This document shows, one piece after another, positions 17,346 to 62,775 of a stretch of DNA of 62,775 nt (its first letter is position 1; each line of letters starts with the position of its first letter). The DNA is from an uncultured virus (IMG/VR IMGVR_UViG_3300020183_006727) (lineage: Duplodnaviria; Heunggongvirae; Uroviricota; Caudoviricetes), in the IMG/VR virus record IMGVR_UViG_3300020183_006727; one strand, written 5' to 3'. The translations under genes and the position numbers were made by a program. The notes under the pieces are model-generated. The model did not search any database. It was given only the letters and a program-made list of their open reading frames with translations, and had not been told where the DNA came from.

Positions 17346-18802
17346 GTGTGCCTCGCCCCTCCATTTTGACACCTGTTGGCGGCAGTGTCATAAATGGCAC
17401 GAACGTTGCCATATCTTGGCTTTCACCGCCTTTGACGCCTCCTCAAATTGCTTCTTATACATTTGAAATATTAACCACCTCAAATCTTGATACCAAAGAT
17501 GCACAAAATTCAAAATGGATACTTATCGCTTCGGTTCCTGCAAACTCCACTTCATTTTCATGGTTGCCACCAAGTCATTTGAATTCTGATGCAGTGCATG
17601 TGGGGGTGCGATTGGTATCTTCGAGTGGATTCAGGTCTGAAATATCTTTTAACCGTTCAGCAGTATCAATTTATGGATTTGAGCTTGATCAGATTGAAGT
17701 TTTGGAACCTATAACAGACCAAGAATTAAACGGACCATTTTTTATCAAACTCAATCTTGGCAGAATGAAGTCGACACATAAGCATGTGAGATTGTTTGTA
17801 AACTTTTCGAGTCAGAGTCTAGGTATATATCAATTTCCGATATTGGACTCAGTGAGGCTTTTGGACAGATATTCCATAGACCTGAGTAGGATTGGAAATT
17901 GCGATGACGGCACTATATCTCTATATACGAGAGACTCTGCAAATAGAATATCTTCTGCAGTCAATATAGAAAAATTGAAAGTCAGAAACACTGGAACTTT
18001 TGTATTGGACACCATAGGGCCAGATCTTAGCATCGAACTTGCCCAGGGAGCTCTGTACGTCCAATCTACAGATGTTGCTGCTAGGCTTTATGCGTTTGAT
18101 GAAACCACTTCTGTTTCTTCATGTAAGTTTAATGTTTTTAGGTATGATAACGGTCAAGTTGTTTTAGATTATGAAGGAGAGCCAAGGCAACCGTTCTTGG
18201 ACAGTGTGATCACACTATCAGAGGGAGATGGAGTAAAGAATGTCACAGTGACAGCCATAGATGTAGGTTGCAACAAGCCAAGAGAGATCATGAGCACCAT
18301 TAAGACTGTCCAGGTATTGAATGAAGACTCTGATTTTTTTGAACTTTCTACGCAATCGTCTATAGTTTCTGTAGAGCCATATCAGGAAGGATTCAGGCTT
18401 TACAGAGTCACTGATTCAAGAGTATTCTTGGGGTTCGTTTTATCTAAACCAATTGCAATTTCAGAATTTGAAGGTTTGTATTATGTTTCTTTACAACATC
18501 CCCAATCCAAGATGTATATTGCAGCGGTATCACCAGTTGGAGTGACAGATGTCTTCGTCGGCACCACCCCCAACCAGGTTGCGGTTGACTTGGCTGCCAA
18601 CTCTGGTGGTATTTTTGTTTTTGATCAGACTGGTAATGCTTTCAGGATATCGACAGGGGCACTGCACTCGATTGGGAACATGGGTGGCCCTGTTTCTTCT
18701 GTAAGATTTTTGAAATCTGGTAATTTGGCGGTTTCTGTGAGCAACGCCAACAGGTTTGTGATTATAAACAACACATCAGTTGTACAGGTGGTGCAATTAT
18801 GA
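17342..18802 (+). CDS. Structural protein with FN3/Ig-like domains and C-terminal propeller-like region (486 aa)
   Basis: ATGA overlap. FN3-like P..LTP.GG.VI....V.ISW...SYTFEI and Ig-like LDTIGPDLSI...AFDETTSV...LSEGDGVKNVTVTAIDVGCN. Confidence 0.55.
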   Translation: MSVPRPSILTPVGGSVINGTNVAISWLSPPLTPPQIASYTFEILTTSNLDTKDAQNSKWILIASVPANSTSFSWLPPSHLNSDAVHVGVRLVSSSGFRSEISFNRSAVSIYGFELDQIEVLEPITDQELNGPFFIKLNLGRMKSTHKHVRLFVNFSSQSLGIYQFPILDSVRLLDRYSIDLSRIGNCDDGTISLYTRDSANRISSAVNIEKLKVRNTGTFVLDTIGPDLSIELAQGALYVQSTDVAARLYAFDETTSVSSCKFNVFRYDNGQVVLDYEGEPRQPFLDSVITLSEGDGVKNVTVTAIDVGCNKPREIMSTIKTVQVLNEDSDFFELSTQSSIVSVEPYQEGFRLYRVTDSRVFLGFVLSKPIAISEFEGLYYVSLQHPQSKMYIAAVSPVGVTDVFVGTTPNQVAVDLAANSGGIFVFDQTGNAFRISTGALHSIGNMGGPVSSVRFLKSGNLAVSVSNANRFVIINNTSVVQVVQL

Positions 18803-21800
18803 CATCGTTCGTCAGCATTCGTGAAGAAGACTCATATGGGGTCTTGCCAGTAAAATATATGCCAGACGGAAGATCTGTTGCTCATATGCCCATGTGCGGC
18901 TTTGGCATAGAAGAGTGTGAAAGCGATATTGGCAGTTGGGACTTTGGCGCTTCTGGAAGTCTGTATTCGCATGTTTATGAAATGATGGAGAGTGCGAGTT
19001 CAGCTGGCTACGGAAGATTTTTCATGGTTTCGCCTATGGGAACTTATGACGGCAACCCTGCTGCTAACTTGATAGCTGGCTGGGATTCGTCAGTACTCCA
19101 TTTGGGATCAACATATCAGCCGCCAATGGAGGGCGGGTCGAGTGCACTTATAGCAGCTATTAGCGATGGTAAGTCTGCATTCGGCTTACAGGTCATTGTG
19201 GGCTTGCGATGGTCTTTGCCTGTCGTGGCATCATCTTCTTTAAGTTCTTCTTCCTCCTCTTCCTCTTCCTCTTCCAGCAGCAGTTCTTCCAAGTTAGAAG
19301 AAGAGCCCGTAAATAATATACAAGATTTTACTAAAACTGGAAGAGTTCTTGCAAAACTTAAATCTAATGACGGCTCAGTTTCTTTGGCAGAATATAACAA
19401 TAGAAGAAATTTAGGATTACTTAAAATAGAAGAGGGCTTACCTAAAGATTATATACCTCAAATAGATCAATACCTAATAGAAGTTCCAGAATCAAAAAAT
19501 GTAGATTTATATATAGATGAATTAAAATTAACTCAAGCTTTTGATTATGTTACTGAGGACGTTATTGGATATCCTGCTGCCAATTGCACAAATGATCCAT
19601 TATTAGGCAGTCAATGGCATCACGACAAGATGGAATCTTGTGCCGCATGGGATATAGAGCCAGGAGACACTCAGGTTGTTGTGGCCATCATGGACACAGG
19701 AATTGATGTTGGTCATGAAGATTTAGAGGCAAATAGACTTCCTGCTTATAATGCTGTTTTGGGTACAAGAGGAGACGAAGGCGGTATAGCGCAAAATGGA
19801 ATGCCCACCGTAGTTTTAGAGGAGTTCCAGCATGGAACTGGCGTAGCCGGATGTGCGGGTGCAATTGGGGGAAATGGAAAGGGTGTTTCTGGTACTGCAA
19901 AATCTATAAGTACAAGAAGTTTCAAAATTGCAAATGGGTGGGCTGGTGCGGGTTGGGCCAATATATCTTGGGCTTGTATAAAAGCAGCTGATGAAGGTGC
20001 AAGAGTAATAAACATAAGCTACAGCTTTTTGTCTTCTCCTAACCTTCATTCTCCAATAGAAGCTACCGCTTCTTATTGTAGAACACAAAAAAACTGCCAA
20101 ATATTTTTTTCAGCCGGTAATGCACAAACCACCGTCTGCCCCGCATCACCAAACACTATTCCTGCAAGTGTAATAGTTGTTGGATCAACTGACATTAATG
20201 ATAATAGATCTGATTTTTCTAATTTTGGAGACGGCGTTGACATATATGCTCCTGGCTCTTCAATACCTTCAACATGGGCAAGAACTTTACAATTTACCGT
20301 ATATCAAAGTAGCCCTGCGAATATTCAAAGAATAGATGAAATACTGCAATATTTAGATCAAAACCTTCCTTCTTTAATTGGAAAAAAAATCAGGCAAACA
20401 GTTAATGGAGTTGTTAATGAGGCAACAATACAACACTACAGCAGCTGCCGTCAGAACAATGTATGCTACCATACCAATCTACCCCCAAATGGAAATGCTA
20501 TGTTGTTCAAATTTAATGTAGCGGGAAATTCTAGTACATCGTGGAACCATGACCTTGTTACTAATCCTGTTACGATAGAAGATCATCCATCTTTAAATAT
20601 TAATTATCAACAGGCTTACATTCTAGCTAATAACGGGTATGTAAGTACAAATGGTACAAGTTATGCTTCGCCAAATGCTGCTGGTGTTGCAGCTTTAATG
20701 ATATCACTAAAACCAAACATAACATGTCAGCAGATAGAGGATATATTAAAATCCTCCGCCGATATCATCCCGATAACTGGTCCAAATGGTTATTCCGCAA
20801 ATGTTAAAAGAATAAATTCAAAAAAAGCCTTACAGGCAGTGCAAGCTTTGGGTGACTCATCTAGTTCGTCTAGTAGTAGTAGTTCTAGCGGTATTGGTAG
20901 CAGTTCTCCTTCCTCCTCTTCCTCTTCCTTCTCCAGCAGCAGTTCTTCCAGGTCTTCTTCCAGCAGCAGTTCATCTTCTTCTTCTAGCAGCAGTTCCCAG
21001 ACCAATAGGATTTTGCAGCTGAACACATGGGCTGGATCTGAGTTTCCAAATCTCTCTGATCCTCTGACCGTGAAATGGCTCAGGCAAAATCTACAGCCTC
21101 TTGTTGGGGTTGTTGATTGTGTGGCCATTTATGGCGCATTTTCCCCCACCAAATCTCTTACATATAACGAATGTGTTGAATTGTGTAACCATCTGATGAT
21201 AAATTTTGGCATGAGGGTGATTTGGCTAGATCCAGAATTAGCCATTGACAGTGGAGCGAATCTACCTCAGTGGTTTTTGAACTCTGCGCCAATAATAATG
21301 AGATACCAAGAATCTTCTCAGATGCAATCTATAATTAGGTCAGATTCATCGTTGGCAGTTGGAAGAGAGATTCATCTGGCCTCAGACAGTTACTCATCCG
21401 GATGGTCTAGAAAGCACATCATAAACGACGGGGTTCACACCGAAATGTCTCCTGGGGAGACAGTGAATGTCGGAAAGCCGTTGGAGTTTTCTCATAATGT
21501 CACAATCATATCAAAGCTTGCTTGTGATTCTAGAACAGCATCTGGCACCATGTCTTTAAATAATCATTATCTTGCATCCTCTGCGAAAAATAACTCAAAA
21601 ATTAGACCATGCTTTACAGTGTCATGTCTAGAAAGTCCAAATATTACTGCTGATGTCGCTAGGTCGCGCATACCAGCTTGGTGGTTTTCAGGAAATCCAC
21701 AAGCATGTGTTGACCGCGCAGCGAAGTCACTAGTGGCTTCTGAATGGGTTACGGGCCTGTCACAGGCAGACTTAAAGACTGTAAGTCCATACCGCACAGT

Positions 21801-24501
21801 TGGGGCAGAGAAAGCCGCTGACATGTTGTTCGATTTGGCGCTCACGCTGTATCCTCTTGCAGCAGGTTCTGCCGAATGCTTGTTCGAAAACGGGATACAT
21901 TTGTCTTTAGAGCATTTTGGCTCTCCGCTTCCACCAGATTATTGTGACACAGTAGACCAAGAACTGCTTAACATATATCCGTTCTTGTTTATGCATCCTG
22001 CAGATGCCATATATCATTTTTCAGATCCGTTGTCTTCTGCATCTGTGTTCTCCAAGTTCCCGCTTATGACTCCGTTCATGGCAAATGGGATTCAGCAATC
22101 TGCGTTATGGATAAAAGAATTCTTGAACAGATTTGCAATGAGGTCGAACAGAAGATCTATTGCTGAAGGTAATTCTCCATTTGTGCCATGGGTAAACCTT
22201 ATATCTTTTGATCACATATCTCATCCATCTTCTGTCCACGCTGCCTGCGTCGCCGAATTGGGCTCCAAGGCTTCGTGTTCGCCTGGTTCTCCATTTGCAG
22301 GCATTTGGTCCGGGATTGCATCTTCAGGAAGATTTTCGACAGAGCAGATTCCTGGTCTTGCATTTGGAACAATGAGAGCAGAATTCTCTGCATCTGATGT
22401 GGTGGTAGATCAAATTTCAAGAAGTGGATCTGTAGTTGGGTCTTACCTGGCCTCTGATGTGAAATATGATCAAGATGCAAAAATGTATCCTCAAAATAGG
22501 GCATTCAGTTTGTGGTATGACCGAACTATGAGAAATGTGGCGTTAGCAGCACTGCAGAATGCTGCGCTTGATATCATCAAGCATGTTTATCCTAAGTGTA
22601 GATTTGCCATACCAGGAATATCTTGCAGCCATGCAGATTTCATACCAAACCTTGCTTCGGAGTTTGTGGCAGATAGGCAGGGTGTAAAAAGCATCGCTGA
22701 TTCTAGATTGATAAATTCTCCTGTTTTCCCATACATCAATACCGCTCAATTTGGTTCTGAGTTGATACAAAGTCCACTTATCCCCACTGTTGGTGCCTAC
22801 AACTCATACGAGGTCTTTGGCAATAGGCAAATTAAGGATGGCAGCAATAGGATTGATTGGGTAATTGGAGGTTCCGACAGAGAAGTGTTGGTGGGAGTCG
22901 CTTCTTCTAGTATCAGATCTCGTGACCTTGATGCCTTGCGAACCAGTATGCAAGATTTACACGCCTTATACATAAGCCAATGGATTTCAAGATCTGGACT
23001 TTCAAATACCAAGATTTGCTATATGCCGCTCGTTGGATTGCGCCCCAAAGGTGGTTTTGGAGATATGCGTTCTGGCTTCAATTCTTCCAATCGGGCTTTG
23101 CCAGATGGTTTTGAATCCACAAAATATCACATATCTGCCAGCAAGTTCAGTCAAATAATTGACATGCATAAAGGTCAAGTATTTTATGATATCGATCAGG
23201 TACGAAGTAGGGCAGAGTGGGAAGAGCTTGTCAAGTCTCTCGTGACACGACCACTTGTTGCAGAATCACTTGAAGAGTCGACTTCTGGAGAGTTCTTAAA
23301 AATATCTTACACATCCAACAGTAAAAACAATCAGGCCAAATCAGTGAAAATGTCGTTCAATAACGGCAGTGTCTCAATAAGATCTATACATGCTAATGGT
23401 GGCGAAATATTTAGTCGGAGTATAGTCGCAGATAATTTGACAGAATTGTCTAGGCAATTAGCAACTTTAGGCATTGATGTTCAACTTCCACATGCCCTGA
23501 GGACGCAGCCGGTTTCTTCTCTTGGAATTTTAGAGACATCTTTGGGCTTGGGATCATCCTATTCAGCACCTGTAACCAGGGTTGATGCTCCTCAGCCTGC
23601 GTCTGTATTTGAAATGGCTATATACACGACCTCTCCTGACCCGACGCAAGCTTCAAGACTTTCGACTGGCGGTTATATTGGAGATCCTCTGCAGGTAGAG
23701 ATTGGAAAAATAAACCAGGGTTTCGGCTTCTTTCCTAAAAATGCAGCTGATGGTGATGGCATATTCGTAAACAAGGAGCTTTCTAATCAATCCATTCGTG
23801 TGTCAGTGAAATGTCCTGATCTTGTCCATCAGTTTGTTTATGTTGGTCGAGAATTGATGCGCGTGAGTGTGTCAAATAATATCATGTCAATACATGAAAG
23901 ATTCAGGTATTCGGTTCATCTCCAAGGTGAGTCCATTTATTTGCTGAACAGTAATTTATTCCAGCCCATGCGTCAAGATGGTGCATATGCTGTCAGATGC
24001 ATTGCCATCGTTGACAGTATTTTTGATAAAAAGAAGCATAACGCTACTGTTAATTTGACAGGATTGCCCAGCAAGTCTCATGCTGTTCTAGAATTTCCAA
24101 ATAGGCAAGGCTTTATGATTAAAGTTGGTAAGTCTGATGGCTTTACCTTGTCTGCGATAGACATAACCTCTGCAATTTCTCCTGGCGATGTGCTTGTTGA
24201 ATTAAATGAGCAAAAATTCGGCAAGCGTCATATAGTTTCAAGCGCAAGTGCTGACAGGGTCAATTTGACCACGCGTGCCACGCCTAGTTCTAGTCTATTC
24301 TGGGTTCTGCCTTCGTGTTCTAGATTCTCACTATCTGATGTAATTTCAAAAAATATCGGCATCGTAAATCAGGTTTTAGAAGGCTCAGTTTCGTTTGATT
24401 TGTCAAATTTTGAAACTGGATTTTGCGCGTATGTTTGGCTAGCAATTAAGAGGTCTGTTGCAGACGGAAGTACAGTATCATTCAGGATTGATCCAAAATG
24501 A
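18799..24501 (+). CDS. Multidomain virion protein (1900 aa): TIM-barrel-like domain interrupted by an S8 subtilase cassette, second GH-like domain, C-terminal tail-type domain
   Basis: The subtilase triad is intact: IMDTG (D at 19693), QHGTGVAG (H at 19831), oxyanion SAGN, NGTSYASP (S at 20659). A prodomain precedes NDPLLGSQW and poly-Ser linkers flank the cassette. The non-protease parts align by eye with ORF 44449-46782. Confidence 0.85.
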   Translation: MTSFVSIREEDSYGVLPVKYMPDGRSVAHMPMCGFGIEECESDIGSWDFGASGSLYSHVYEMMESASSAGYGRFFMVSPMGTYDGNPAANLIAGWDSSVLHLGSTYQPPMEGGSSALIAAISDGKSAFGLQVIVGLRWSLPVVASSSLSSSSSSSSSSSSSSSSKLEEEPVNNIQDFTKTGRVLAKLKSNDGSVSLAEYNNRRNLGLLKIEEGLPKDYIPQIDQYLIEVPESKNVDLYIDELKLTQAFDYVTEDVIGYPAANCTNDPLLGSQWHHDKMESCAAWDIEPGDTQVVVAIMDTGIDVGHEDLEANRLPAYNAVLGTRGDEGGIAQNGMPTVVLEEFQHGTGVAGCAGAIGGNGKGVSGTAKSISTRSFKIANGWAGAGWANISWACIKAADEGARVINISYSFLSSPNLHSPIEATASYCRTQKNCQIFFSAGNAQTTVCPASPNTIPASVIVVGSTDINDNRSDFSNFGDGVDIYAPGSSIPSTWARTLQFTVYQSSPANIQRIDEILQYLDQNLPSLIGKKIRQTVNGVVNEATIQHYSSCRQNNVCYHTNLPPNGNAMLFKFNVAGNSSTSWNHDLVTNPVTIEDHPSLNINYQQAYILANNGYVSTNGTSYASPNAAGVAALMISLKPNITCQQIEDILKSSADIIPITGPNGYSANVKRINSKKALQAVQALGDSSSSSSSSSSSGIGSSSPSSSSSSFSSSSSSRSSSSSSSSSSSSSSSQTNRILQLNTWAGSEFPNLSDPLTVKWLRQNLQPLVGVVDCVAIYGAFSPTKSLTYNECVELCNHLMINFGMRVIWLDPELAIDSGANLPQWFLNSAPIIMRYQESSQMQSIIRSDSSLAVGREIHLASDSYSSGWSRKHIINDGVHTEMSPGETVNVGKPLEFSHNVTIISKLACDSRTASGTMSLNNHYLASSAKNNSKIRPCFTVSCLESPNITADVARSRIPAWWFSGNPQACVDRAAKSLVASEWVTGLSQADLKTVSPYRTVGAEKAADMLFDLALTLYPLAAGSAECLFENGIHLSLEHFGSPLPPDYCDTVDQELLNIYPFLFMHPADAIYHFSDPLSSASVFSKFPLMTPFMANGIQQSALWIKEFLNRFAMRSNRRSIAEGNSPFVPWVNLISFDHISHPSSVHAACVAELGSKASCSPGSPFAGIWSGIASSGRFSTEQIPGLAFGTMRAEFSASDVVVDQISRSGSVVGSYLASDVKYDQDAKMYPQNRAFSLWYDRTMRNVALAALQNAALDIIKHVYPKCRFAIPGISCSHADFIPNLASEFVADRQGVKSIADSRLINSPVFPYINTAQFGSELIQSPLIPTVGAYNSYEVFGNRQIKDGSNRIDWVIGGSDREVLVGVASSSIRSRDLDALRTSMQDLHALYISQWISRSGLSNTKICYMPLVGLRPKGGFGDMRSGFNSSNRALPDGFESTKYHISASKFSQIIDMHKGQVFYDIDQVRSRAEWEELVKSLVTRPLVAESLEESTSGEFLKISYTSNSKNNQAKSVKMSFNNGSVSIRSIHANGGEIFSRSIVADNLTELSRQLATLGIDVQLPHALRTQPVSSLGILETSLGLGSSYSAPVTRVDAPQPASVFEMAIYTTSPDPTQASRLSTGGYIGDPLQVEIGKINQGFGFFPKNAADGDGIFVNKELSNQSIRVSVKCPDLVHQFVYVGRELMRVSVSNNIMSIHERFRYSVHLQGESIYLLNSNLFQPMRQDGAYAVRCIAIVDSIFDKKKHNATVNLTGLPSKSHAVLEFPNRQGFMIKVGKSDGFTLSAIDITSAISPGDVLVELNEQKFGKRHIVSSASADRVNLTTRATPSSSLFWVLPSCSRFSLSDVISKNIGIVNQVLEGSVSFDLSNFETGFCAYVWLAIKRSVADGSTVSFRIDPK
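19231..19293 (+). repeat. Poly-Ser linker, left flank of S8 cassette
   Basis: Encodes SSSLSSSSSSSSSSSSSSSSK. Bases 19243-19293 match 20902-20952 at 47/51 positions. Confidence 0.9.
19295..20843 (+). repeat. S8 subtilase cassette, copy 1 (dispersed direct repeat of 61224-62775)
   Basis: Begins tagaagaagagcccgtaa in both copies. Has several ~100-190 bp identical or near-identical tracts separated by divergent patches. The prodomain part is AT-rich (27-28% GC in two hand-counted 60-mers at 19381 and 19441, versus 45% at 19141). Confidence 0.95.
20857..20997 (+). repeat. Poly-Ser linker, right flank of S8 cassette
   Basis: 47-codon Ser-rich tract SSSSSSSSSSSGIGSSSPSSSSSSFSSSSSSRSSSSSSSSSSSSSSS. 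Confidence 0.9.
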
Positions 24502-41446: not shown

Positions 41447-44400
41447 ATGTATTATACTGGTACTAACCTCATAGTCAGTCTCGAAGTTGATAAAGCAAAT
41501 ATATTTTCTAGAGGAAATGTTTGTGAGATTTTTACATTCAGAGATGGTGGTGTAGGTAGGCGTGTCGGTTCTTTGGCAATGGTGTCTTCAGTTTTTGGCG
41601 ACACCGTGAATTTGACATTCAGTAATTTACCAATAGGTATAAATGACTACATAGAAAAAGGAGATGTTCTACGACTGTTTTTAAATAAAGATGTTTTTTC
41701 AGATATTCTTGGACATTTTATGGATTTTAACGACGGTTCTCCGCGTTTTGGCAAGTCTATAGATGAGCCAAATTATGATGAAAAAAGACATGATTTACTT
41801 AATTACGGGTCTGATGGATTCACCCCATTTGACCGACAGCCAATTAACTTGCTGTGTATGCGTGACTCTAATTTCAGTCCATTGTCAATGGACTACACTG
41901 GCTTGGTGTATGCAGGAAGAACAGATGCACCTAGGGGTCACAGAAACGGCATGGGGTCCAAGATCGCCGTGCTTATCACCAGGCAGCATCTGCTCATGTC
42001 CGATCACTATCCGCCGACCACAGACACAATGTATGCATGCGCTGACGATGCGCGTTTCACCATAACCAAGAGAAACAATATAGAGCAGGGCTCTACGGGT
42101 TTTACATACAATACTCTTGGTAACGGCGTCATGATATTGAATAGGTATCCTGAGTGGTTCATGATGCAGAATGATGGGAATACGGTAAAACAAAAATACC
42201 CAGATATCCCAATGTCTGCTTGGTCTTTATTTAACGATGCAGTGGTTCAGGTATTTAAAAATCCTGTGCCCAGTGCAATAAAACCAATAAAGCTTGGCTT
42301 TACTAATAACCCAAAAATACATTTTTCTGAAGATCAAGCCTTAGCTTTTGTGAACAATTCTTGGCTTACTGTTTCTGCCATGAGATTCGTGAACGTTGTT
42401 AATCAAACAACTCAGGCCAAGGTTGTCAATTCTCCTTGGGCAACTATGCCATCAGGGGTGAGACTTACAGATATGCAACACTGCATTTCGGCTGGCGATT
42501 CTGGAAGTCTGCTTCTTCATAAACACAGTCAAGGCACGATTTTTATGGGTGCAGTTTTTTCTGGTTTCACTGCATATGGCTTAATAATAAATTCTGATGG
42601 CAGTTCATATTGTGTGCCTCCTGCCTTCGACGGGGATGACAGATGTAGTTTTGACGACAGGTCAACAACTTCATTTGTAAATACTGGTGTTTCTCTCTTT
42701 ACTCCTGACATGAAAATAGTTTTAGATATAATATTGAGTGATCTATCTTGGCAAAACACTAATTCTAAAAAACTATCAAATTTGGATAAGAATATATCAG
42801 ACGAAGATATCATTCATACGAGTGCTTTTTTTATAGATTTAGATGCATCTTTTTCTTATCTTTTGCCTTCGTCTTCATCTTCAAGCAGTTCTAGTTCTTC
42901 AAGCAGTTCTAGTTCTTCAAGCAGTTCTAGTTCTTCAAGCAGTTCTATCCTTCCCTGCAACCCTCCTTCTGCTATATCTGGATGTCCCGACTATTTCGAT
43001 AGGGAAGCATATGTTGTTTCAAATGATCAATCCACAATAGATTCCGAGTTTGGCATATTGACTGAAACATCTATTTTTGGAGGTGGACACGGAGACTCTC
43101 TGCCTGTAAATTTCGAGGGGGCCGGAGCAGTCGTAGTAGGACAGGCATTGCCGACTTTGGGTCAGATACGGTTTATAGATGGCTCTAGGGTTGGCAAGGG
43201 CGACAAGGTTGAGGGCGCAGTTTTAGCAAAGAGGTGGAAAGATTTAGGAGAGGTTACCCACAGGGTCATAGAAGACAGCCTTGAAGGCAATAACGCTGGG
43301 TTTACCCTGAAGATGGCAGAAGCAATGCGAATAAACATGATGCATAATGCCGCAGCAATTAAGTTAGAAACAGATGTCGACCCAACTAGCGGTACAGAAA
43401 AAACATCACTTCATGATGCAGCAGACATGTCTTGGATGGATACTAAAATATCTACTGTTGGTCATACTGCCGTGAGATGGTCGTATGGTCTTTCTAAGTC
43501 GCCATCTTATGTTCTTTCTGCAGTCTATTTGACAAACCATAATTTGATCGCCTTCGCTACTGATGTGGGCGTTTTGTTCGTTGATTCATCTTCTAGTTAC
43601 ATGACATCTGCGCCCCCAGGCTGGGTGGACAATGGATTCGCTTTCAAGTTAGCCATTTATGGAAATAAAATCGTTTCCTATGGCCCAAGCGAAATACTTG
43701 AATATGATCAATTTGAGATGTCAAGTAGATCCGTACCTCTCGAAGGTGTTTCTGGGCTGATTGTCACTGGTGGTAAAAACGGCCAAACATATATTGTTGC
43801 AACATCAACTATACTGTACTCAAAGTCAAATGTTTCAATACCATTTGTTCGTCGTGGTGGGTTGGATTTCAATAACGACAATCAGTTTGACAAGATAACT
43901 CATGTTTTTGACGGTCCACCAAATGTGATTTCTTTAGGCTCCAACTTTGCTTGGTCTCCAGACGGTTTGAGATTTACAAAATCGTCATCTTCACTTATTA
44001 CCCCTCCGTCTGTGCTTGTAAAGTTCAAAGGATTTTTGGTTTATGGAGGAAAAAGTGGTGTGGCGTATGGCATGAACCTAGTCGCTTCTGCCTCTAGTTC
44101 AGATGATCGTCTTTTGGAAATACCAGAATCTTCTGATGGAGTTTCCATGACTGGTGTGGCTTGCAATTCTATATTAGTGTTTAGGTCAGTTGATCAAGAT
44201 GGATCTTTAAGAGACGATTATATGATATGCGGATTTGCTAATGGTTATACATGCGTTGTAAAATATAAGGTTGATACAATTAACCTTTCGGGTGGAGGAC
44301 TAGAAGCAGAAATACCCCAGGCAACTGGAATGGATTGCATACATCATCTAGTAGAAGTTGGTGGCAGGGTCGCTGTTGTTGGATTTAACACGTGGAAGTA

Positions 44401-44452
44401 TGTAGACGAAATCAGGGTAAATAGGATTGTTTCTGGAGTTCCACTATCATGA
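41447..44452 (+). CDS. Trypsin-like (clan PA) serine protease domain fused via poly-Ser to a structural/propeller domain (1001 aa)
   Basis: AVLITRQHLLMSDHY (H at 42005), FNDAVVQVF (D at 42236) and ISAGDSGSLL (S at 42500) occur in H-D-S order. A 26-Ser linker follows at 42869-42946, then propeller-like repeats. Confidence 0.7.
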   Translation: MYYTGTNLIVSLEVDKANIFSRGNVCEIFTFRDGGVGRRVGSLAMVSSVFGDTVNLTFSNLPIGINDYIEKGDVLRLFLNKDVFSDILGHFMDFNDGSPRFGKSIDEPNYDEKRHDLLNYGSDGFTPFDRQPINLLCMRDSNFSPLSMDYTGLVYAGRTDAPRGHRNGMGSKIAVLITRQHLLMSDHYPPTTDTMYACADDARFTITKRNNIEQGSTGFTYNTLGNGVMILNRYPEWFMMQNDGNTVKQKYPDIPMSAWSLFNDAVVQVFKNPVPSAIKPIKLGFTNNPKIHFSEDQALAFVNNSWLTVSAMRFVNVVNQTTQAKVVNSPWATMPSGVRLTDMQHCISAGDSGSLLLHKHSQGTIFMGAVFSGFTAYGLIINSDGSSYCVPPAFDGDDRCSFDDRSTTSFVNTGVSLFTPDMKIVLDIILSDLSWQNTNSKKLSNLDKNISDEDIIHTSAFFIDLDASFSYLLPSSSSSSSSSSSSSSSSSSSSSSSSSSILPCNPPSAISGCPDYFDREAYVVSNDQSTIDSEFGILTETSIFGGGHGDSLPVNFEGAGAVVVGQALPTLGQIRFIDGSRVGKGDKVEGAVLAKRWKDLGEVTHRVIEDSLEGNNAGFTLKMAEAMRINMMHNAAAIKLETDVDPTSGTEKTSLHDAADMSWMDTKISTVGHTAVRWSYGLSKSPSYVLSAVYLTNHNLIAFATDVGVLFVDSSSSYMTSAPPGWVDNGFAFKLAIYGNKIVSYGPSEILEYDQFEMSSRSVPLEGVSGLIVTGGKNGQTYIVATSTILYSKSNVSIPFVRRGGLDFNNDNQFDKITHVFDGPPNVISLGSNFAWSPDGLRFTKSSSSLITPPSVLVKFKGFLVYGGKSGVAYGMNLVASASSSDDRLLEIPESSDGVSMTGVACNSILVFRSVDQDGSLRDDYMICGFANGYTCVVKYKVDTINLSGGGLEAEIPQATGMDCIHHLVEVGGRVAVVGFNTWKYVDEIRVNRIVSGVPLS
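42878..42946 (+). repeat. Perfect 18-bp tandem repeat (tcttcaagcagttctagt x ~3.8) encoding poly-Ser
   Basis: Read directly from the sequence. Confidence 0.95.
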
Positions 44453-57400: not shown

Positions 57401-60400
57401 TCATGTCAGGCGCAACCCTTAGCTACGCCAGAAGTATTCTGTTCTGACAGTGAGGCAGTGTACACCCTCACCCCAGCAGACCAGTTGATGAGGGATCACA
57501 TTCTCGCCAAGCGTTCTTGGGCTAACTCTCTTGGTGCAAAGCCCATGCTGTTTGTGCGGGAAGATTCATCACCATCATCTCCATTCAGGAACATAGACGA
57601 TTTCGGCATGCCAATTCCCTCAGGAATTATCAGATATGTGAATGATCTCAAGTTTAATCTTGCCGCTGACACTGCGATTGGTTTTGCATCTGAAATAACA
57701 CATGTCATCATAGACCTGAAGAGTATTTTCCGTTCTGATGATGTTGTTTCTGAAGAATTCAATCGCCATTCTAGATGGGTTTCAAATCCAGTTGATATGC
57801 TTGACTCGGGGGATGCTCTCGGTAGCAGGGACACAATACTGCGAGAGGTGGCGGCAATCAACGGATTGTTACTAGAGACCATTGCTAAGCTCAAGGCTCT
57901 CCACCCGTCTGTAAGGTTTGGAATTTATGGGCTTGGCAATTTCAGAAACAATGGAAATGTCAGGGCTGCCTATTTTGAGTTATCAAGATTTTTCTCGGGA
58001 GACACCAATAGCCCCATCAGGAGTAGTTCGTCTTGGGCAAGGCAGGGTGTTGCAACGCGCATATCTGAAGTTTATGGACCTCTGCTGGACGCTGTTGATT
58101 TCGTTGCTGTTGAATGCATGCCTGCAGCCACAGGCTCAGCGAACAAGCAACAAATCTCTGCCAAGGTGGGTGTGGCAACAGACGCCATACTGCATCACTA
58201 CAACCAATCAAAGAAGACCCCCAAGCCTATATATGTCATCAACTTTGGCGTATTTCTTTCTCCCTCAGATCCGTCTTTCGACAACCATAACTGCAAGATT
58301 TCAAGATCTCAATTCAATTTCATATGCATACAGCCGTTCATGAGGCACAAAATTGATGGATTCATATTTGATGCCATCGAAAGAGATCTGAAGAGATCTG
58401 ATTTCTCAGGTTGTCCATCTGTTGGTGGCGCCATTTTCTCAAAGCCATGCTGGGAGCTTGGAACGGTGACATGTTCATCGATTGCCAAGGCCGAATATGC
58501 AGCTTCTTACAACATTCAGTCGATGGTTGTAGAGCTTGCAAACAGAACTGCAGATCCAGCGCGGATTGTGCGCCCAATCTGGGCTGGTACCTGGCGTGGC
58601 CCAGTGTCTGCAAGTTTGGATGCTGTTGATATAAACCAAAGCGATCAGGATTTAACAGCGTACACATATGTCAAGCCTATGGTTCCCCTGTACGGGCCAA
58701 CCATTACAGGTACATTCACGGATGGTGGTCAGAGTGCTCCTGCAACATTCATAAATACAGCCAGGTTCAACGCGGTTGTATCGTTGCTCCAAAGACTTCC
58801 ATCTGGCATGCGATCTCTGCGTATGCATTATTTCTATGAAGCCGGCGTCAACAAACGAATGTTCTATGACAACCTTGGCAATCCAGATCAATTTTCCACC
58901 ACTGGTGGGGTGATCGTTCCGTCCATATGGGCATCCAACGGAGTCATTACTGTAAAGAATGCCTGGACAATAGTCATAAACGCTCTCAAGAGTGGTGGTG
59001 CTCCACTCGATCATTTGGTTTTTGATTACGAAATGGGTGGCATATTTACCAGCTGGAATCTTAATGCGGACAAGGTTAATTCATATGCCAATAGGCCAGA
59101 ATTCTCCAAATCTTGGTTTGGCGTTGCCTCCTGGAAATACTGGTTCACCGATGGCGGTCGTTTTGATCTCAATTCTCAATTGGCGGAATTGATAAGTAAT
59201 TTGGGTAACCCGCATCCGCAGAACACCCCTGCATATCACTATTGGAATCGCGGTGTGTCTGCTATTGATGCAGCAAACCTCTACGAAGCATTCATGCCCA
59301 TAGGCAAGAATCAATATCCAGGTTTGAGCATGTCGAACTATCATGCATATTCGATTGCACCATGGGATCACGCCTATGATTCTGACGGGCACCATGATAT
59401 GCAGCAGGGTCTCGCTGGTAATGCCTCTGCTCCTTATCTGTATGGTCAATGGGATGACACATCGATATACTCTGTGGCAACTGATGACCCCACAAGACTG
59501 GTTCGCCTGGACCAGTCAAATGCCGCCACAACTCCCTTTGGACGGACACCTTGGAACTCTCTCTTATTGGCTCTGCAGACCTTGCGTGCTGTCAACAGAA
59601 ACTGCGGTGGGTCGCCGACAAGGCCATGGATAGCTCCAAGGTCGTGGGCTGGCGACGCCAGTGGAGTGGTCGGTTTTGTGGATTCTCCCATGTGGGACGA
59701 GTTGCTGCGTCATGCGTGCCTGACTGGGGTTGACCACATACATTCTTGGGAGCCTGACGGTCTTGCAGCAAATTTGAGAACAGACACCTTCTCCAGGATG
59801 GAAAAGATACTGAAGGAGGCTAATGAGCGTCTTGGCGGTTTCTCTCCGCATGTGGCTGCCAATCAGCGTTTGTCTTTCAATTCTGATTTCATAGTCAGCG
59901 GTGCTCAGGCAGTTGCTGGAGAATATTATGGAAAATGGGTGTGGCGCATCACCAGATCATCGCCTAATATATCTCTTTTTGGACCAAAGGGAGTCTTCAT
60001 AGACATGGATGCAGACGGAGGGGCGTGGTTGGTCACCGCCACCTCTAACCTTCCATCAATAACCACCCAAAACACATATGATCTGAATGACGCTAACAGG
60101 TATTATTGGTGGATATCTATGGGTGCTGGAGGAAGTACGCCAATAATAGGTGGCATGTCACAAACATGGGTGGCCCTGTGGCAGGGGGAGCACCGCCGAG
60201 GTTATGATTCTGGAGGAAACGAACACGATCCTTTGCCAAGGGCGTTTGAATGGAGCCCTGACCCTCAGAATTTTCAAACCAAAAGCCCTTGGCACAATGC
60301 GCTTTATGAGATGGTGATTGACGCATACATGTGGGGTGGCAGAAGCTTCTTATTGTGGATGCCATTTGGAGGTTACAGCTGGGGCGAAGAACCCGACACC

Positions 60401-62775
60401 GCTGCTACGGAAGGAGCCTCCTTTGTTTCTTACATAGAGTGGAAGAGGCGCTATCTGCGCACAACTCCTGATTTTACCCAGTCTCCAGGCTATGAGTGCA
60501 GGGAGTGCACTGCCGTGTGGAAGGGTGCATCTCATGCCATCAGGGCCTTGGTTCATGGTGTGATAATCCCTTCTTTGAGAACGCCCATTATATCTCCGTG
60601 CAATGTTATCCTCTATTTGACATCCAATCGAGGGTATCCATCTTACAGAAAACGCACCACAGCCATATGGGATTCTGAGTCAGGAACCTCCACACAAAAA
60701 GACAGCGCTTTTAAGGTGATGCTTGATGAGATGATTGCAGAAATCATTTTTATGGCAGGAGATGTTGCAAGCCCCACGAATGGTCGATTGAGCGTGTGTC
60801 TTGATGCTGCATCGCAAAGCGCAACTCCATCTGACATATCACTATTCAGATCTGCAGAAACCAATAATGATTACCAAACATACAGAACAGATTTCTTGGA
60901 GTTGTCTGATTGGTATGTCGCCACAAAACTGAAAGAGGCTGGTATTGAAGTTTTCTATGAGACGCGTGACTGGACCAGAAGGAAGAAGGCTTTCGGAGTT
61001 GATGATACCGTAACCTCCACCACAGGACTGCCGATTGATTGGGCAAATGTCCCGTTCTTCTCTGATGAATATTATCTTTGGTCTTTTGGTAATGAGTTCC
61101 CGTGGGTCCCATATGATGCACCAGAAAAGATATTGAGAGCATATAATATATCTTATCCGCTCTTAGATATGGGGGAAAAAGACCCATTCACAACAAATCA
61201 GTTTAGATCTTTACTTACTTTTATAGAAGAAGAGCCCGTAATTAAAAATTCACAAGATTTTACTAAAACTGGAAGAGTTCTTGCAAAACTTAAATCTAAT
61301 GACGGCTCAGTTTCTTTGGCAGAATATAACAATAGAAGAAATTTAGGATTACTCAAAATAGAAGAGGGCTCAGTTAGAGATTATATATCTCAAATAGATC
61401 AATACCTAATAGAGGTTCCAGAATCAAAAAATGTAGATTTATATATAAATGAATTAAAATTAACTGAAGCTTTTGATTGGGTTACTGAGGACGTTATTGG
61501 ATATCCTGCTGCCAATTGCACAAATGATCCATTCTTAATCAATCAATGGCATCACGACAAGATGGAATCTTGTGCCGCATGGGATATAGAGCCAGGAGAC
61601 ACTCAGGTTGTTGTGGCCATCATTGATACAGGAATTGATGTTGGTCATGAAGATTTAGAGGCAAATAGACTTCCTGCTTATAATGCTGTTTCGGGTACAA
61701 GAGGAGACGAAGGCGGTATAGCGCAAAATGGAATGCCCACCGTAGTTTTCTGCGGAGAGGGTGGCATGCATGGACCTCAAGTAACCGGATGTGCGGGTGC
61801 AATTGGGGGAAATGGAAAGGGTGTTTCTGGTACTGCAAAATCTATAAGTACAAGAAGTTTCAAAACTTCAAATTCGTTTTTCGCTGGTGGGTTGTTGTCG
61901 GATGTACTTTGGGCTTGTATAAAAGCAGCTGATGACGGTGCAAGAGTAATAGTAGTAAGCTACGGCTATATGGGTAGTCCTCAGTTTTATGCTGCAATAG
62001 AAACTACCGCTTCTTATTGTAGAACAAAAAACTGCCAAATATTTTTTGCAGCCGGTAATGTACCATCACTCAATTTATCTTCACCAACTCCTGCAAGTGT
62101 AATAGTTGTTGGGGCTACAGATTCCTCAGATAATAGATGGTATGGTTCTAGTTTTGGAGACGGCGTTGACATATGGGCTCCTGGCTCTTCAATATTGACA
62201 ACAACAGGAAGATTGTTAAGATTTGGCACTACAGATGCAACTAGCCCTGCGAATATTCAAAGAATAGATGAAATACTGCAATATTTAGATCAAAACCTTC
62301 CTTCTTTAATTGGAAAAAAAATCAGGCAAACAGTTAATGGAGTTGTTAATCAGGCAACAATACAACACTACAACAGCTGCAGTCTTTGGGGTCAATGCGG
62401 AGATCTCACTTCAAGTGGACGTTCTTTGTTCTTATTTAATGTAAAGGAAAGTTCTAGTGCATTCTGGAGCTGGGACCTTGTTACTAATCCTGTTACGATA
62501 GAAGATCATCCATCTTTAAATATTGATTATCAACAGGCTTTCCTTGTAGCTCCTAATGCAATAACACCGTATGTATCTGTAAGTGGTACAAGTTATGCTT
62601 CGCCAAATGCTGCTGGTGTTGCAGCTTTAATGATATCACTAAAACCAGACATAACATGTCAGCAGATAGAGGATATATTAAAATCCTCCGCCGATATCAT
62701 CCCGATAACTGGTCCAAATGGTTATTCCGCAAATGTTAAAAGAATAAATTCAAAAAAAGCCTTACAGGCAGTGCA
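48494..62775 (+). CDS. Giant polyvalent protein, at least 4760 aa, 3'-truncated by window edge: multiple GH-like TIM barrels, RCC1-like propeller, GATase-like domain and S8 subtilase
   Basis: ATG at 48494 overlaps the upstream TGA (MKSDYDQFDLLNRL...). Every segment I translated in this frame is open, and the terminal S8 codons are in the same frame. The supplied track has no ORF in this frame, as expected if no stop is reached. S8 triad: IIDTG (61625), MHGPQVTG (61769), SGTSYASP (62591). Confidence 0.9.
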   Translation, partial: MKSDYDQFDLLNRLVQDGYVKITRGSLGATSSSYAPIAYLEGLSSDPLKAQPLSGNLSSGVAPDVKTIGLDSSNTGVGLSVETGSAVIAGAFDAGASVVLIDSGGFTRTDFDFIARSVMGVSCVLSKQVVTTFEEAKNAVLLAASATMGCQVDVLVKHDHNHFVKSDRGNLGEALFILYQVLGSDYGINPISVYDNLFSDNSFDYDTDLLRIFKSDGDWGVGATATHFNIGRPFLAAAHRLNLQESLFAAAGCRLNCDFDPWPAVDFMSLDDFNGFNMWENGWDESETSSGGYLWLRGWPYQKPSGISTISRRVRPFVVMDRWGSPHPTAPFDYDFDNLTLIYKRLKLEDVNHIVQDVSEVFTCQKDAQINSICVDASAGNYSFKVTDPAFAGDGNRPQNYAVNRWLINSHSSTPLSSQLPWSSGITHGVANDAVRKAIDGSNMNDSIMPGLLCDRGYFGFDTSNNQPKPIPSGQRGYYPVDIPFCHWWKGDSRSRVEPSNPDSWRYPVWFQPDLEEYTYTDNAGVSRTVRLPSLFHDNLIKFYCGTLDASGQPTANGGGFIQYMIRKLCSYAKQSPNVPNVNAIGQGLFANVDAFGNGSNPYRLPFDLSRDGNLLDYIVYDFIVEFGGDKTGTLWDWIQLVRGYGLMDEWLTRQSSKPKWSNLSWNGFTGVRSILEAGNGRYGSGLTGSGSISEGLRSLAETRWDGSVEHPMLSRLQLVVSILENEVFALMTKAIEVTLKAEGCMRPESSLPYYGYQCVSRLDADTTFKVGQFPEKYGENYTSISVGHSPIIFYTLKDGSLRWVTTQGNFAGYDLLPPPELASLKYKQIAVGYGVVAGLTTDGNVVAWGGPAQEHCDVTASKAADAFTEQLNSLGRKVRKIAAGGSHFLALLDNGSVVAWGDNSSAQLSDPNTVWTRVGSIPRPIVGDATLITNYIPYIDFEYKQDASSYLGYFPCITDDQDSCVLDASGDPVLQGNSCQTSPQNRRYRLFRFNALGCPFRGGDLPNSNFDTPAPSYPASGSTSWAGLNWAVHTGAPNDYQFARSTVSSGVNASLNGSWIRSTANILTGGSQGYTDTSGSLISNSIFGTSGQSYVDIAAGRFHNLLLTDDGNIETWGGNFFYAVTGSGLQTNGYVRMGSGRSNDTSESSTMVEASTSKWIENGREYPYPNAPAGDNTAPTVKTLKTTANSVSAISCGYYNNYAIKPDGSIFAWDRNEWGESLPTGNIPAGPFKQVAGGYHHAVALRRDGTVACWGENNDGECNVPTQFQNATTSNCVWVGAGQRFTVALKADGTLYAWGDLSKLVSSGTQGMRISLAERIYLPGTPLISAHPGSDGTMSNQLSWQGKYSLFECSGDIPTEIIYSGHGQYWLYTSFVDVPNMQSGLINSLYHGSNLYKVGTIDDRGSWPLVLMGGSGNYGGFLKLKTDGTLSSGVDPLDRSGPEAEFNQNQLPGSRLTWVGNGARQNVPTANGFSSFTKAPALVGSGNFVSPPTPARSAMEPFADLKYGIYVIKQCAYSHPSQTCLAWVEWPGGHGRPDVSPVGFIWNEADRQLPDDESWSSRWYGGGVRSRELVHGWMWWEKLVHAMLVAQGNPLFTFWYGSAERIFTGKYAALPEGIDDTVFNNTTVNAVLGDIERAVGSRRRWSLAFRHEYQFSFAETDSSDTAASLVGGTIPPLTPAQMKPCITCVKVEEADDGSSPAYLLFRLSVPTPTEVPDISPNEQYPPNNRILNLKKFVVSVMSGSDEIARLRPNPKRPCGMWFSMPYEEGMTPPTFEMVEDTGLVSRRDGLTTHRLEGTKIAGYANESATTPSVKDTSWYRDSRFSLHTQWSGLNCVLLYDQNVRNMLGAVTNGSDCEVCLLSNCSAPNLSPASLSFYKRKHLTGPSTFERLSLPSCGAATIAKLTGARAAFKANFDIDAQVRAAAQWNPDFAIVFLRSSDEPMWFPKPASTPSPDWDWSRDDAVFDQWKLFANDGTVATAVGMAMNPMSEYVTASVKYGIRLVAYFKMFSSVELDVQANNTNSSLNRFGLSAPAGGWRISEVFHKATDIFGNLITVSEHGNSGMTLLSIISPSTRFLMADWCKEVARQGMAKDGSGNPILGSDGYPLGVRGMYWDSMPIDPFRGDFSEDTVSWATYEGLFNNSRPPGQIPKPDPSIFPFPLTNAKVSANPTLAPLRNWLSSQNTTNITDLLSLDNPAVGWAESSQASPVTFKSEVRRYLEWLRNKEKDFMKFIADTMKAYGHPDFAIIPSGIHSGHSSSIFANQHDSAYYSAGFKSELGVEQIFDLRMPINNTNQATPPDMWLAQIADMLMSRSRDGKPSLMWQPLSLWSPSEADALQPPTGTQQSLVTCTSNLDTAYQQANGRSTFLSGKGIVRDHAIRGFLENKLLITWACGNIFDAMYFSGAGYSGENPDSLTGVENNDTSVPSDNASVYVRRLASMVSSLKDGGLPRAKRSRVPWVAVVHSPEAAFGASIQGNIANVKWQQYYWPLMGAIHTCVENGVPVSVVQDDSLDLYDELGIGVLVIPFARSAVPAATAKILNRFNGGVIWMQEEFLDSPDPRAGTGYTPPLATLKNEFHDTSLMAGSSITKAKNARNLLWNLITIRGGEPPISVTIVPTSSSPTPDPLAVPCHGFEVCVGDGSAQHVIITSATDFGWTDMTKHMNPLQYSTRRHLLENIPSGARPILSMCSTSAFVTADSFYKTTYTGSDQLIPLEHMPLLGKLNFYAGTPRTWDRYVRFDFKFSSTQLPVRARQFLLNKERGKFDPIDMVIEGGYSEMNDMIGERTVEGVSIIPCSYDLGSVIDVQLRNRIKDDDVTEFIVNAGQGSYGNPCSNPGLSCNFIGRLRCLFDGLATAATEDDKIIVRMYCDGPENDPDVSKIVLAKQIFEDLRESVVANPSTWQRVIDEPNSLTGFSSYCPFGFVVARDRVGNPSSPTDITRIITGVEFRGNYGISILAGMLPSISGMVPSCQAQPLATPEVFCSDSEAVYTLTPADQLMRDHILAKRSWANSLGAKPMLFVREDSSPSSPFRNIDDFGMPIPSGIIRYVNDLKFNLAADTAIGFASEITHVIIDLKSIFRSDDVVSEEFNRHSRWVSNPVDMLDSGDALGSRDTILREVAAINGLLLETIAKLKALHPSVRFGIYGLGNFRNNGNVRAAYFELSRFFSGDTNSPIRSSSSWARQGVATRISEVYGPLLDAVDFVAVECMPAATGSANKQQISAKVGVATDAILHHYNQSKKTPKPIYVINFGVFLSPSDPSFDNHNCKISRSQFNFICIQPFMRHKIDGFIFDAIERDLKRSDFSGCPSVGGAIFSKPCWELGTVTCSSIAKAEYAASYNIQSMVVELANRTADPARIVRPIWAGTWRGPVSASLDAVDINQSDQDLTAYTYVKPMVPLYGPTITGTFTDGGQSAPATFINTARFNAVVSLLQRLPSGMRSLRMHYFYEAGVNKRMFYDNLGNPDQFSTTGGVIVPSIWASNGVITVKNAWTIVINALKSGGAPLDHLVFDYEMGGIFTSWNLNADKVNSYANRPEFSKSWFGVASWKYWFTDGGRFDLNSQLAELISNLGNPHPQNTPAYHYWNRGVSAIDAANLYEAFMPIGKNQYPGLSMSNYHAYSIAPWDHAYDSDGHHDMQQGLAGNASAPYLYGQWDDTSIYSVATDDPTRLVRLDQSNAATTPFGRTPWNSLLLALQTLRAVNRNCGGSPTRPWIAPRSWAGDASGVVGFVDSPMWDELLRHACLTGVDHIHSWEPDGLAANLRTDTFSRMEKILKEANERLGGFSPHVAANQRLSFNSDFIVSGAQAVAGEYYGKWVWRITRSSPNISLFGPKGVFIDMDADGGAWLVTATSNLPSITTQNTYDLNDANRYYWWISMGAGGSTPIIGGMSQTWVALWQGEHRRGYDSGGNEHDPLPRAFEWSPDPQNFQTKSPWHNALYEMVIDAYMWGGRSFLLWMPFGGYSWGEEPDTAATEGASFVSYIEWKRRYLRTTPDFTQSPGYECRECTAVWKGASHAIRALVHGVIIPSLRTPIISPCNVILYLTSNRGYPSYRKRTTAIWDSESGTSTQKDSAFKVMLDEMIAEIIFMAGDVASPTNGRLSVCLDAASQSATPSDISLFRSAETNNDYQTYRTDFLELSDWYVATKLKEAGIEVFYETRDWTRRKKAFGVDDTVTSTTGLPIDWANVPFFSDEYYLWSFGNEFPWVPYDAPEKILRAYNISYPLLDMGEKDPFTTNQFRSLLTFIEEEPVIKNSQDFTKTGRVLAKLKSNDGSVSLAEYNNRRNLGLLKIEEGSVRDYISQIDQYLIEVPESKNVDLYINELKLTEAFDWVTEDVIGYPAANCTNDPFLINQWHHDKMESCAAWDIEPGDTQVVVAIIDTGIDVGHEDLEANRLPAYNAVSGTRGDEGGIAQNGMPTVVFCGEGGMHGPQVTGCAGAIGGNGKGVSGTAKSISTRSFKTSNSFFAGGLLSDVLWACIKAADDGARVIVVSYGYMGSPQFYAAIETTASYCRTKNCQIFFAAGNVPSLNLSSPTPASVIVVGATDSSDNRWYGSSFGDGVDIWAPGSSILTTTGRLLRFGTTDATSPANIQRIDEILQYLDQNLPSLIGKKIRQTVNGVVNQATIQHYNSCSLWGQCGDLTSSGRSLFLFNVKESSSAFWSWDLVTNPVTIEDHPSLNIDYQQAFLVAPNAITPYVSVSGTSYASPNAAGVAALMISLKPDITCQQIEDILKSSADIIPITGPNGYSANVKRINSKKALQAV
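61224..62775 (+). repeat. S8 subtilase cassette, copy 2 (dispersed direct repeat of 19295-20843)
   Basis: Same framework DNA as copy 1 (the last ~190 bp differ at one base) with replaced loop segments. In frame within the giant ORF. Confidence 0.95.

Follow-up and report, generated by a model that had tools for sequence, protein, structure and literature searches.

How did a subtilase (peptidase family S8) come to lie, in frame and between two runs of serine codons, inside a large phage protein? The question is raised by a 62,775-nucleotide (nt) stretch of DNA from an uncultured virus of the Caudoviricetes (IMG/VR record IMGVR_UViG_3300020183_006727), referred to below at its full length as the window. 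An open reading frame (ORF) at 18799..24501, one of a run of apparently coupled large ORFs, encodes a 1900-residue protein (P0001, the recipient; orthologs P0002, P0003 and P0004), and an initial annotation had singled out within it an S8 block that was bounded by poly-Ser tracts and appeared to split a host domain. The block is indeed a discrete cassette with poly-Ser tracts at its borders. We consider it probable, well short of certain, that this is a recently acquired foreign subtilase cassette which carried a poly-Ser tail and was inserted in frame into an existing, hypervariable poly-Ser linker of a conserved protein of ~1350 amino acids (aa) from a huge freshwater phage.

The recipient begins with an N-terminal flank (aa 1-144; 18799..19230) ending in ...GLQVIVGLRWSLPVVA, which is followed by an upstream poly-Ser linker, SSSLSSSSSSSSSSSSSSSSK (19231..19293), and by the S8 cassette (aa 166-686; 19294..20856), in which a pre-catalytic region precedes the catalytic domain and which ends in ...ALQAVQALGD. 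A downstream linker composed of S11, GIG, SSSPSSSSSSFSSSSSSR and S15 (20857..20997) then leads to the C-terminal part of the recipient (20998..24501; QTNRILQLNTW...). Poly-Ser tracts of 20, 11 and 33 residues are located on the two sides of the S8 module; these and all other window features given below lie on the plus strand.

The initial annotation had predicted that related genomes would carry this gene with the site empty, and such alleles were found. A search with the C-terminal 1166 aa of P0001 as query returned three matches in 5.8 billion proteins. One, P0002 (1346 aa, 90% identity), reads ...GLRWSLPVAVL-[35 Ser-rich residues]-QTNRVLQLN...; the distant ortholog P0003 (1350 aa, 35% identity) has SSGQSSSD repeats at the same position, forming a linker of about 75 aa, and P0004 lacks its N-terminus. 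Four empty alleles (84-92% identical) were recovered as DNA: L002, with 86% nt identity and a 21-aa linker, and L009, L010 (91-92% identical) and L011 (90%), with a 35-aa linker in each. All of the empty-allele linkers lie between ...LRWSLP and LN.W.GS..PNL, and blastn homology between these alleles and the window stops at 19224/19225 and restarts at 20953/20977, in the last codons of the downstream linker. With lengths of 21, 35, 35, about 75 and 589 aa among the orthologs, the linker site is hypervariable in length. The filled state was seen in four separate assemblies, namely at both junctions in the window and in the IMG/VR viral contig L001, at the left junction in L008 and at the right junction in L012.

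The S8 module is not carried at this position by all homologs, as the empty orthologs demonstrate, and among the nine alleles examined the recipient linker contained either S8 or nothing, with no alternative module. Profile searches with an alignment of the N-terminal region, probably swamped by Ser words, recovered nothing other than P0002 and one fragment of the window protein, and an IMG/VR scan with the ortholog alignment found nothing beyond two records already recovered. In the Logan contigs of four lake runs, covering region 18800-21400, no joint of 19241 to 20953 was detected; the contigs break at the repeats, and absence of the empty allele is not demonstrable from them.

The two linkers share a direct repeat of 51 nt. 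As had been claimed in the initial annotation, its upstream copy (19243..19293; last codon AAG, for Lys, with the cassette directly after it) and its downstream copy (20902..20952; last codon AGG, for Arg) are identical at 47 of 51 nt and are spaced 1659 nt from start to start, which amounts to 553 codons in the frame of the recipient ORF. This match was compared to null distributions, using as the statistic the best 51-nt alignment between tract 19231-19293 and tract 20857-20997. Codon shuffles within the tracts yielded a mean of 33.3 and a maximum of 41. For Ser codons sampled at random according to the codon usage of the tracts, the mean was 36.7 and the maximum 46; a value of 47 was reached in 0/2000 replicates in either case, and a chance low-complexity match was therefore rejected. 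On both strands of the window, L002, L010, L011 and 36 kb of G002 (a second IMG/VR contig, 164 kb long), there was no further site with at least 36/51 identity to either unit, and the unit was absent from all four empty-allele DNAs.

The downstream linker, including the unit punctuated by F...R, appears to belong to the cassette, since its architecture is kept in P0005, an S8 fragment with 67% identity: the end of the latter, ...AVQALDG-S9-IGP-S7-F-S5-R-S5-V-S5-R..., parallels the QALGD-S11-GIG-S3PS6-F-S6-R-S15 of the window. Judged from this one fragment, the linker apparently travels with the cassette. The same linker is highly variable among near-identical genomes. Over 17.6 kb at 99.9% identity, 12 of the 16 positions that differ between the window and L001 fall inside 20871-20961, indels of 3 and 6 nt included; L012 has a third allele (three alleles in three near-identical genomes), and a form with a 3-nt deletion was present in 4/4 lake runs. 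The value of 47/51 is a property of the window allele, the downstream unit of L001 and L012 (both at least 99.7% identical) being 6 nt shorter and having further mismatches.

The recipient linker of the empty alleles also contains a repeat: in L009 (1988-2149) and in L010 and L011 (3403-3564) a perfect or near-perfect 36-nt tandem duplication was observed (...CCT AAC TCT TCT AAC TCT TCC TCC AGC AGC AGC TCC...), which provides independent evidence for slippage in that linker. Two other features were noted in lake runs. At window position 20993, contigs of runs X1, X2, X4 and X5 match the last part of the Ser tract and then run on into non-window sequence, at another Ser-linker junction. In 20452-20551, one contig per lake run replaces or skips 98 nt inside a fast-evolving patch of the S8 domain.

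A second copy of the cassette lies at 61223..62773 (aa 4244-4760 of the giant ORF 48494-62773) and runs past the window end. It is 77% identical to the first in amino acids and 87% in nucleotides, and homology begins at the same point, (L/I)EEEPV. Both copies look compositionally foreign. Their GC contents and third-position GC contents (GC3) are 0.379 and 0.238 for the first and 0.386 and 0.234 for the second, compared to 0.486 and 0.451, and 0.428 and 0.372, for the two flanks of the first; GC3 of the surrounding genes is 0.37-0.47, and nowhere else in the window does a stretch of 1548 nt have so low a GC content. The AT-richness that the initial annotation reported for the 5' part of the insert is real, with a GC content of 0.29-0.30 at 19300-19599 and 0.475-0.495 at 18900-19299.

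These data point to an insertion rather than a loss, because the outgroup P0003 is empty, GC and GC3 of the cassette are foreign, the 51-nt unit is missing from the empty alleles, no copy of the cassette is present anywhere in the 164 kb of G002 (where a Pfam S8 scan matched only an unrelated small ORF), and the synonymous divergence (dS) between copies 1 and 2 is only 0.088, as compared to 0.16-0.25 between the recipient gene and the nearest empty lineage. The empty alleles look ancestral and not like excision scars, since an excision from unit to unit would leave one unit behind. The proposal that recombination between the repeats excises the protease in frame was accordingly not borne out: 4/4 empty-allele DNAs are without the unit, and no bridging contig was found in the four lake runs.

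By its sequence motifs the protease looks intact. PF00082 (Peptidase_S8) was matched with 104.1 bits by the whole ORF, 122.1 bits by copy 1 alone and 97.0 bits by copy 2, the cut-off being 21.8. When copy 1 was aligned to thermitase (1thm), Asp299 (19693-19695), His345 (19831-19833), Asn441 (20119-20121) and Ser621 (20659-20661) were located in DTG, HGT, GN and GTS motifs, respectively, delimiting a catalytic span of 19693..20661, and the four motif strings of copy 2 are identical. We take these motifs to have the catalytic roles established for subtilisin, that of Asn441 being in the oxyanion hole. Inside the S8 fold there is a 117-aa insertion (P0001 aa 495-611; 20281..20631), placed between thermitase residues 214 and 216 and between the APG and GTS motifs, and containing one fast-evolving patch. 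It is missing from thermitase and from 10/10 free-standing relatives scanned and is present in copy 2 and in P0005. The guests are therefore nested, the 117-aa insertion lying inside the cassette and the cassette inside the recipient linker. In free-standing relatives, the ~70-75 residues ahead of the S8 domain align with cassette residues from about 50 on. No Inhibitor_I9 or other prodomain family was detected in the cassette (Pfam, E <= 1), and one free-standing relative displayed a sub-threshold match to the Fervidolysin prodomain (E 0.0056).

Close relatives of the cassette are few. In a representative library these were the 327-aa fragment P0005 (69% identity, or 67% in the later alignment quoted above) and a 160-aa fragment (64%), all others being at most 42% identical; of 50,697 phage records, 3 matched the cassette, at 30-36% identity. 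Three possible identities or sources of the insert were rejected. An intein does not fit, PF00082 being the only family found in the insert at E <= 1, with no Hint or homing-endonuclease family; a transposon or insertion sequence with target-site duplication does not fit either, since the insert codes only for the S8 ORF and the 51-nt repeat is imperfect and absent from empty sites. Related phages also share a small S8-like ORF that stands alone (275 aa; G003:C1:52334-52927, L020; G002:C1:89716-90333, L017), ~5 kb from a weak capsid-family match; as a donor, the phage's own ORF at G003 52334-52927 was discarded, since by BLAST it did not resemble the cassette (best E 0.12).

The genomic setting of the second copy bears on the role of the Ser tracts. 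Its 5' join reads ...FRSLLTF followed directly by IEEEPV, with no poly-Ser upstream, so that at least one integration took place without Ser homology on the 5' side, and poly-Ser is not needed on both sides. Ahead of it is a 387-aa module (60062..61222) that is present in the window lineage only and fills the interval from where synteny with G002 ends to the cassette. This synteny within the giant ORF stops 11 nt ahead of a poly-Ser block in G002 (~240 nt, about 80 aa; g2syn 49575-50300), past which G002 encodes a different C-terminus of 170 aa and then a stop, whereas the window continues with the 387-aa module and the cassette; the giant ORF hence has alternative C-terminal modules at its poly-Ser block. 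Over 51 kb, the S8 insert and this end of synteny are the only two large differences between the window and G002, in which Ser tracts account for 405 of about 50,300 nt. These observations would support the view that Ser linkers mark exchange points, with the reservation that n = 2 and that the pattern was noticed post hoc. The sole other poly-Ser tract of the window, aa 475-500 of ORF 41447 (42869..42946), differs from its G002 counterpart in length by a small indel.

The two copies (19294-20841 and 61223-62773) form a mosaic, in which blocks of 60-180 nt that are 100% identical alternate with changed patches. In the patches at P0001 aa 361-436 and 545-592, nonsynonymous divergence (pN) is 0.2-0.35 and synonymous divergence (pS) 0-0.1, and the overall ratio of nonsynonymous to synonymous rates (dN/dS) between the copies is 1.58 (rough Fisher p 0.02). 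This mosaic may reflect gene conversion of one copy by the other, diversifying selection acting on specificity, or a combination of the two.

Does the cassette interrupt a single domain of its host? The initial annotation argued that it does, on the grounds that the two flanks read like halves of one domain that is contiguous in a paralog encoded at 44449. The paralog argument failed: profile comparison aligned only residues 339-781 of P0002 with residues 263-663 of that protein (probability 97.5%), and the N-terminal parts displayed no similarity (hhalign probability 0.4%; hmmsearch agrees). The flanks matched no Pfam family at E <= 1, a PDB sequence profile search of them returned low-complexity noise only, and the ESM Atlas offered no usable match. 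AlphaFold2 was run on natural empty alleles with 4-sequence alignments and yielded a 520-aa model with a pLDDT of 37.4 and a pTM of 0.37, and a 340-aa model with values of 48.6 and 0.56, respectively. In both of these low-confidence models helices and strands alternate on both sides of the linker, the N-terminal flank being folded as helix, strand, helix, helix, strand, and among the matches listed, 50/50 per model are (beta/alpha)8-barrel enzymes, their aligned stretches (about 53-315) running across the linker.

A complex prediction in which the two flanks were entered as separate chains scored 0.38, as compared to 0.00 for the best of three controls. The mark used in this split-halves assay is reached by 116 of 157 solved complexes and by 2 of 215 mismatches; of those that reach it, only 18 of the 157 solved complexes and both of the mismatches do so with a score of 0.60 or less. 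The runs share at least 15% of contacts, and the pLDDT of the partner is at least 34. The models thus lend weak support to the claim that the insert splits one domain, which we nevertheless judge to be probably correct; the linker would then lie within a loop of a (beta/alpha)-barrel-like domain.

How the cassette may have entered the linker can be outlined as follows. Entry would probably have been via Ser-codon homology or template switching. The downstream copy of the 51-nt unit predates this insertion, as its F and R interruptions are kept in P0005, and the upstream copy may be a duplicate of the cassette's own tail: either the donor segment had such a tail at each end, or the copy was made during integration, by gene conversion or template switching. 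The whole linker ends in the codons AGC AGC AGT TCC CAG ACC, which are also found in the empty allele L002, and the 3' junction was therefore probably formed by recombination within Ser codons; at the 5' end, the first three codons of the upstream linker, TCA TCT TCT, are likewise present in L002 and belong to the recipient. The outcome would be an intact protease held by two flexible serine leashes on a recipient domain that can still fold, and the predicted gain, proteolytic activity for a large phage protein that probably interacts with the host. The two copies may now be diverging under diversifying selection. Of the earlier proposal that poly-Ser tracts serve as recombination landing pads, two observations are in favor, the location of the cassette in a Ser linker and the G002 breakpoint 11 nt from poly-Ser; these are two events only, and the second copy, which is without upstream poly-Ser, does not conform.

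One possible alternative, which we hold to be unlikely though deserving of serious consideration, is that an illegitimate joining event simply hit a disordered, mutation-tolerant linker and that the 51-nt repeat was created later by gene conversion or slippage, poly-Ser being permissive and not a substrate of recombination. The join of the second copy to unrelated sequence without any Ser tract is what would be expected of such a process; the tracts mutate fast by indels, alleles are mixed among near-identical genomes, and with the unit absent from the empty alleles no prior homology of that length is documented. Against it stand the 3' end of the insert, which grades into linker codons common to the empty alleles, the other large rearrangement relative to G002, which also adjoins poly-Ser despite the small fraction of the sequence that such tracts occupy, and the unit's F and R interruptions, already present in P0005. 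That S8 is instead ancestral at this site, and that the relatives lost it by recombination between the repeats, their empty linkers being the products of excision, seems improbable. The repeats are direct and in frame, Ser tracts are unstable, and the linkers of L009-L011 contain TCT TCC TCC AGC AGC AGC TCC, loosely resembling part of the unit; yet 0/4 empty DNAs reach 36/51 identity to it, an outgroup as distant as P0003 is empty too, GC3 of the cassette is far from that of the recipient gene, the dS between the copies is under that between lineages, and G002 has no cassette at all. Least credible is an assembly artefact, in which a cassette from elsewhere or from another strain was threaded through look-alike Ser repeats. 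Such repeats, with their period of three, would hold a false join in frame, the Logan unitigs of the four lake runs do break at 19242-19284 and 20902-20942, and two IMG/VR or JGI contigs (L008 and L012) end inside the cassette; however, the same joins recur at 99.9-100% identity in separate records, the unique junction ...TCC AAG TTA GAA... must occur in reads, and the two copies differ at 13% of nucleotides, which makes copy 1 a distinct locus.

We therefore retain as the probable explanation the recent acquisition of a foreign cassette with its own Ser tail by an existing Ser linker. Several points weigh against it. No donor came to light: only the window's own lineage was retrieved from IMG/VR when copy 1, P0005 or an alignment of three sequences served as query, and the GTDB genomes contained only generic S8 relatives (32-55% identity over parts). 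The assignment of the tail to the cassette draws on the single fragment P0005, the 3' flank of copy 2 being outside the window. Copy 2 has no poly-Ser tract upstream, what precedes it being ordinary protein of normal GC content. The recipient family is tiny, with the three matches mentioned above, and the polarity of the insertion consequently depends on one outgroup. All contigs are short-read assemblies across low-complexity repeats. As to the proposed barrel, the Z scores of the matches are at most 8.3 and 7.0, a range that the tool calls common, at a pLDDT of 37-49, and Foldseek against the PDB returned no match at E <= 0.001.

Throughout the window, large to giant ORFs follow one another, without exception on the plus strand, and the stop codon of one mostly overlaps the start codon of the next. 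Overlaps of 4 nt (ATGA or TTGA type) were observed at eight consecutive ORF junctions (8131/8134, 16104/16107, 17342/17345, 18799/18802, 24498/24501, 33734/33737, 44449/44452 and 48494/48497), suggesting that translation may be coupled along the whole block of giant genes. The contig G002 is 84-86% identical to the window across about 51 kb. CheckV completeness of related records is 22-39% at 100-164 kb, from which a genome of several hundred kb, that of a huge phage, may be estimated; a capsid-family match elsewhere in a related record was under the cut-off. The stretch is present in 20 public runs, of which 20/20 are lake or freshwater metagenomes. Among the giant ORFs is one encoding a GT4-type glycosyltransferase (7070-8134; PF13692, PF00534), and it would be pure speculation that this enzyme glycosylates the Ser linkers and so shields them from proteases. 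RCC1-like repeats (PF13540, PF25390) were found in two giant ORFs, 8131-16107 (2658 aa) and 48494-62773 (>4760 aa), and a fn3 domain in ORF 33734, which has a 75-aa N-terminus in common with ORF 3412 (36% identity).

Domain insertion is a main route to new multidomain proteins, and natural cases are rare in which close relatives preserve the filled as well as the empty allele and the repeats at the junctions can still be read. The present locus offers such a pair, together with a second copy of the guest, a foreign compositional signature and signs of diversifying selection. A tentative generalization, which at present we would think unlikely to hold, is that huge phages use the DNA of Ser-codon linkers as portable homology for a recombinase-free plug-in system, in which enzyme cassettes with their own poly-Ser tail are copied between genes of one genome, enter the linker-bearing loops of domains in frame, so that a protein gains a tethered catalytic module while its fold is kept, and diversify under positive selection; the case described here would be that of a glycosidase-like barrel housing a protease, which in turn has an insertion nested inside it. 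Should the DNA of Ser tracts indeed favor exchange in frame, the assembly and refitting of giant proteins in huge phages would be explained, and a simple rule for placing tethered enzymes in loops would suggest itself to protein engineers; failing that, the locus still illustrates cleanly how a linker can be an insertion site that selection permits.

Some elements of this arrangement have known counterparts. Polyserine linkers (PSL) space the modules of carbohydrate-active enzymes in Saccharophagus degradans, Cellvibrio japonicus and Teredinibacter (PMC2386152, citing Howard et al. 2004). A long, nearly pure Ser run between modules that fold independently is what defines a PSL, and it is also what was found here, with Ser-rich tracts of 21-75 aa at the same site in the orthologs. 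As in the PSL enzymes that are described in that source, long Ser runs separate functional modules of a large protein, in this case a protease from a probable glycosidase-like barrel. In the same account, PSLs are spacers between serial modules of bacterial secreted or extracellular enzymes, whereas here the linker probably lies inside one domain of a phage protein; it also differs in varying from 21 to 589 aa among orthologs and in retaining an insertion site whose DNA repeats are still visible. A limited literature search found no published link between polyserine and domain shuffling.

Exchange of modules at repeated motifs is known from phage adhesins: in T-even phages, modules of gp38 and the distal tail fibre are swapped at conserved motifs (PMC3157838, citing Tetart et al. 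1996, 1998), and in the antireceptors of Streptococcus thermophilus phages collagen-like repeats separate the domains (PMC5601072, citing Duplessis and Moineau 2001). The locus resembles these systems, to the extent that the cited passages describe them, in that short repeated coding motifs flank a variable module, as its 51-nt direct repeat does, in that exchange occurs in or near the motifs, and in that the product is an in-frame chimera. It differs from them, as they are presented there, in that the adhesins swap one kind of binding segment, whereas a whole foreign subtilase, pre-catalytic region included, has been added here, at a homopolymeric Ser motif, with presence or absence as the only states seen at the linker.

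Comparable to the guest itself are the PA-domain subtilases, S8 enzymes with inserted or appended domains. Like subtilases with extra domains, and like the phage protein family PHROG 3677 ('protease'), the cassette keeps an S8 core with intact Asp, His and Ser, accommodates an insertion of its own and forms part of a much larger protein; unlike the former, it is itself a guest in the linker of another domain, bearing its own 117-aa guest. The in-frame interruption of a conserved protein that is contiguous in relatives recalls an intein, from which the cassette is distinguished by flanks that are flexible linkers and not splice junctions, and nothing points to a re-ligation of the protein. Module shuffling, then, is known; what is new is the arrangement, in which a complete enzyme cassette of foreign origin, Ser tail included, occupies a Ser linker probably internal to a domain, while relatives keep the empty alleles.

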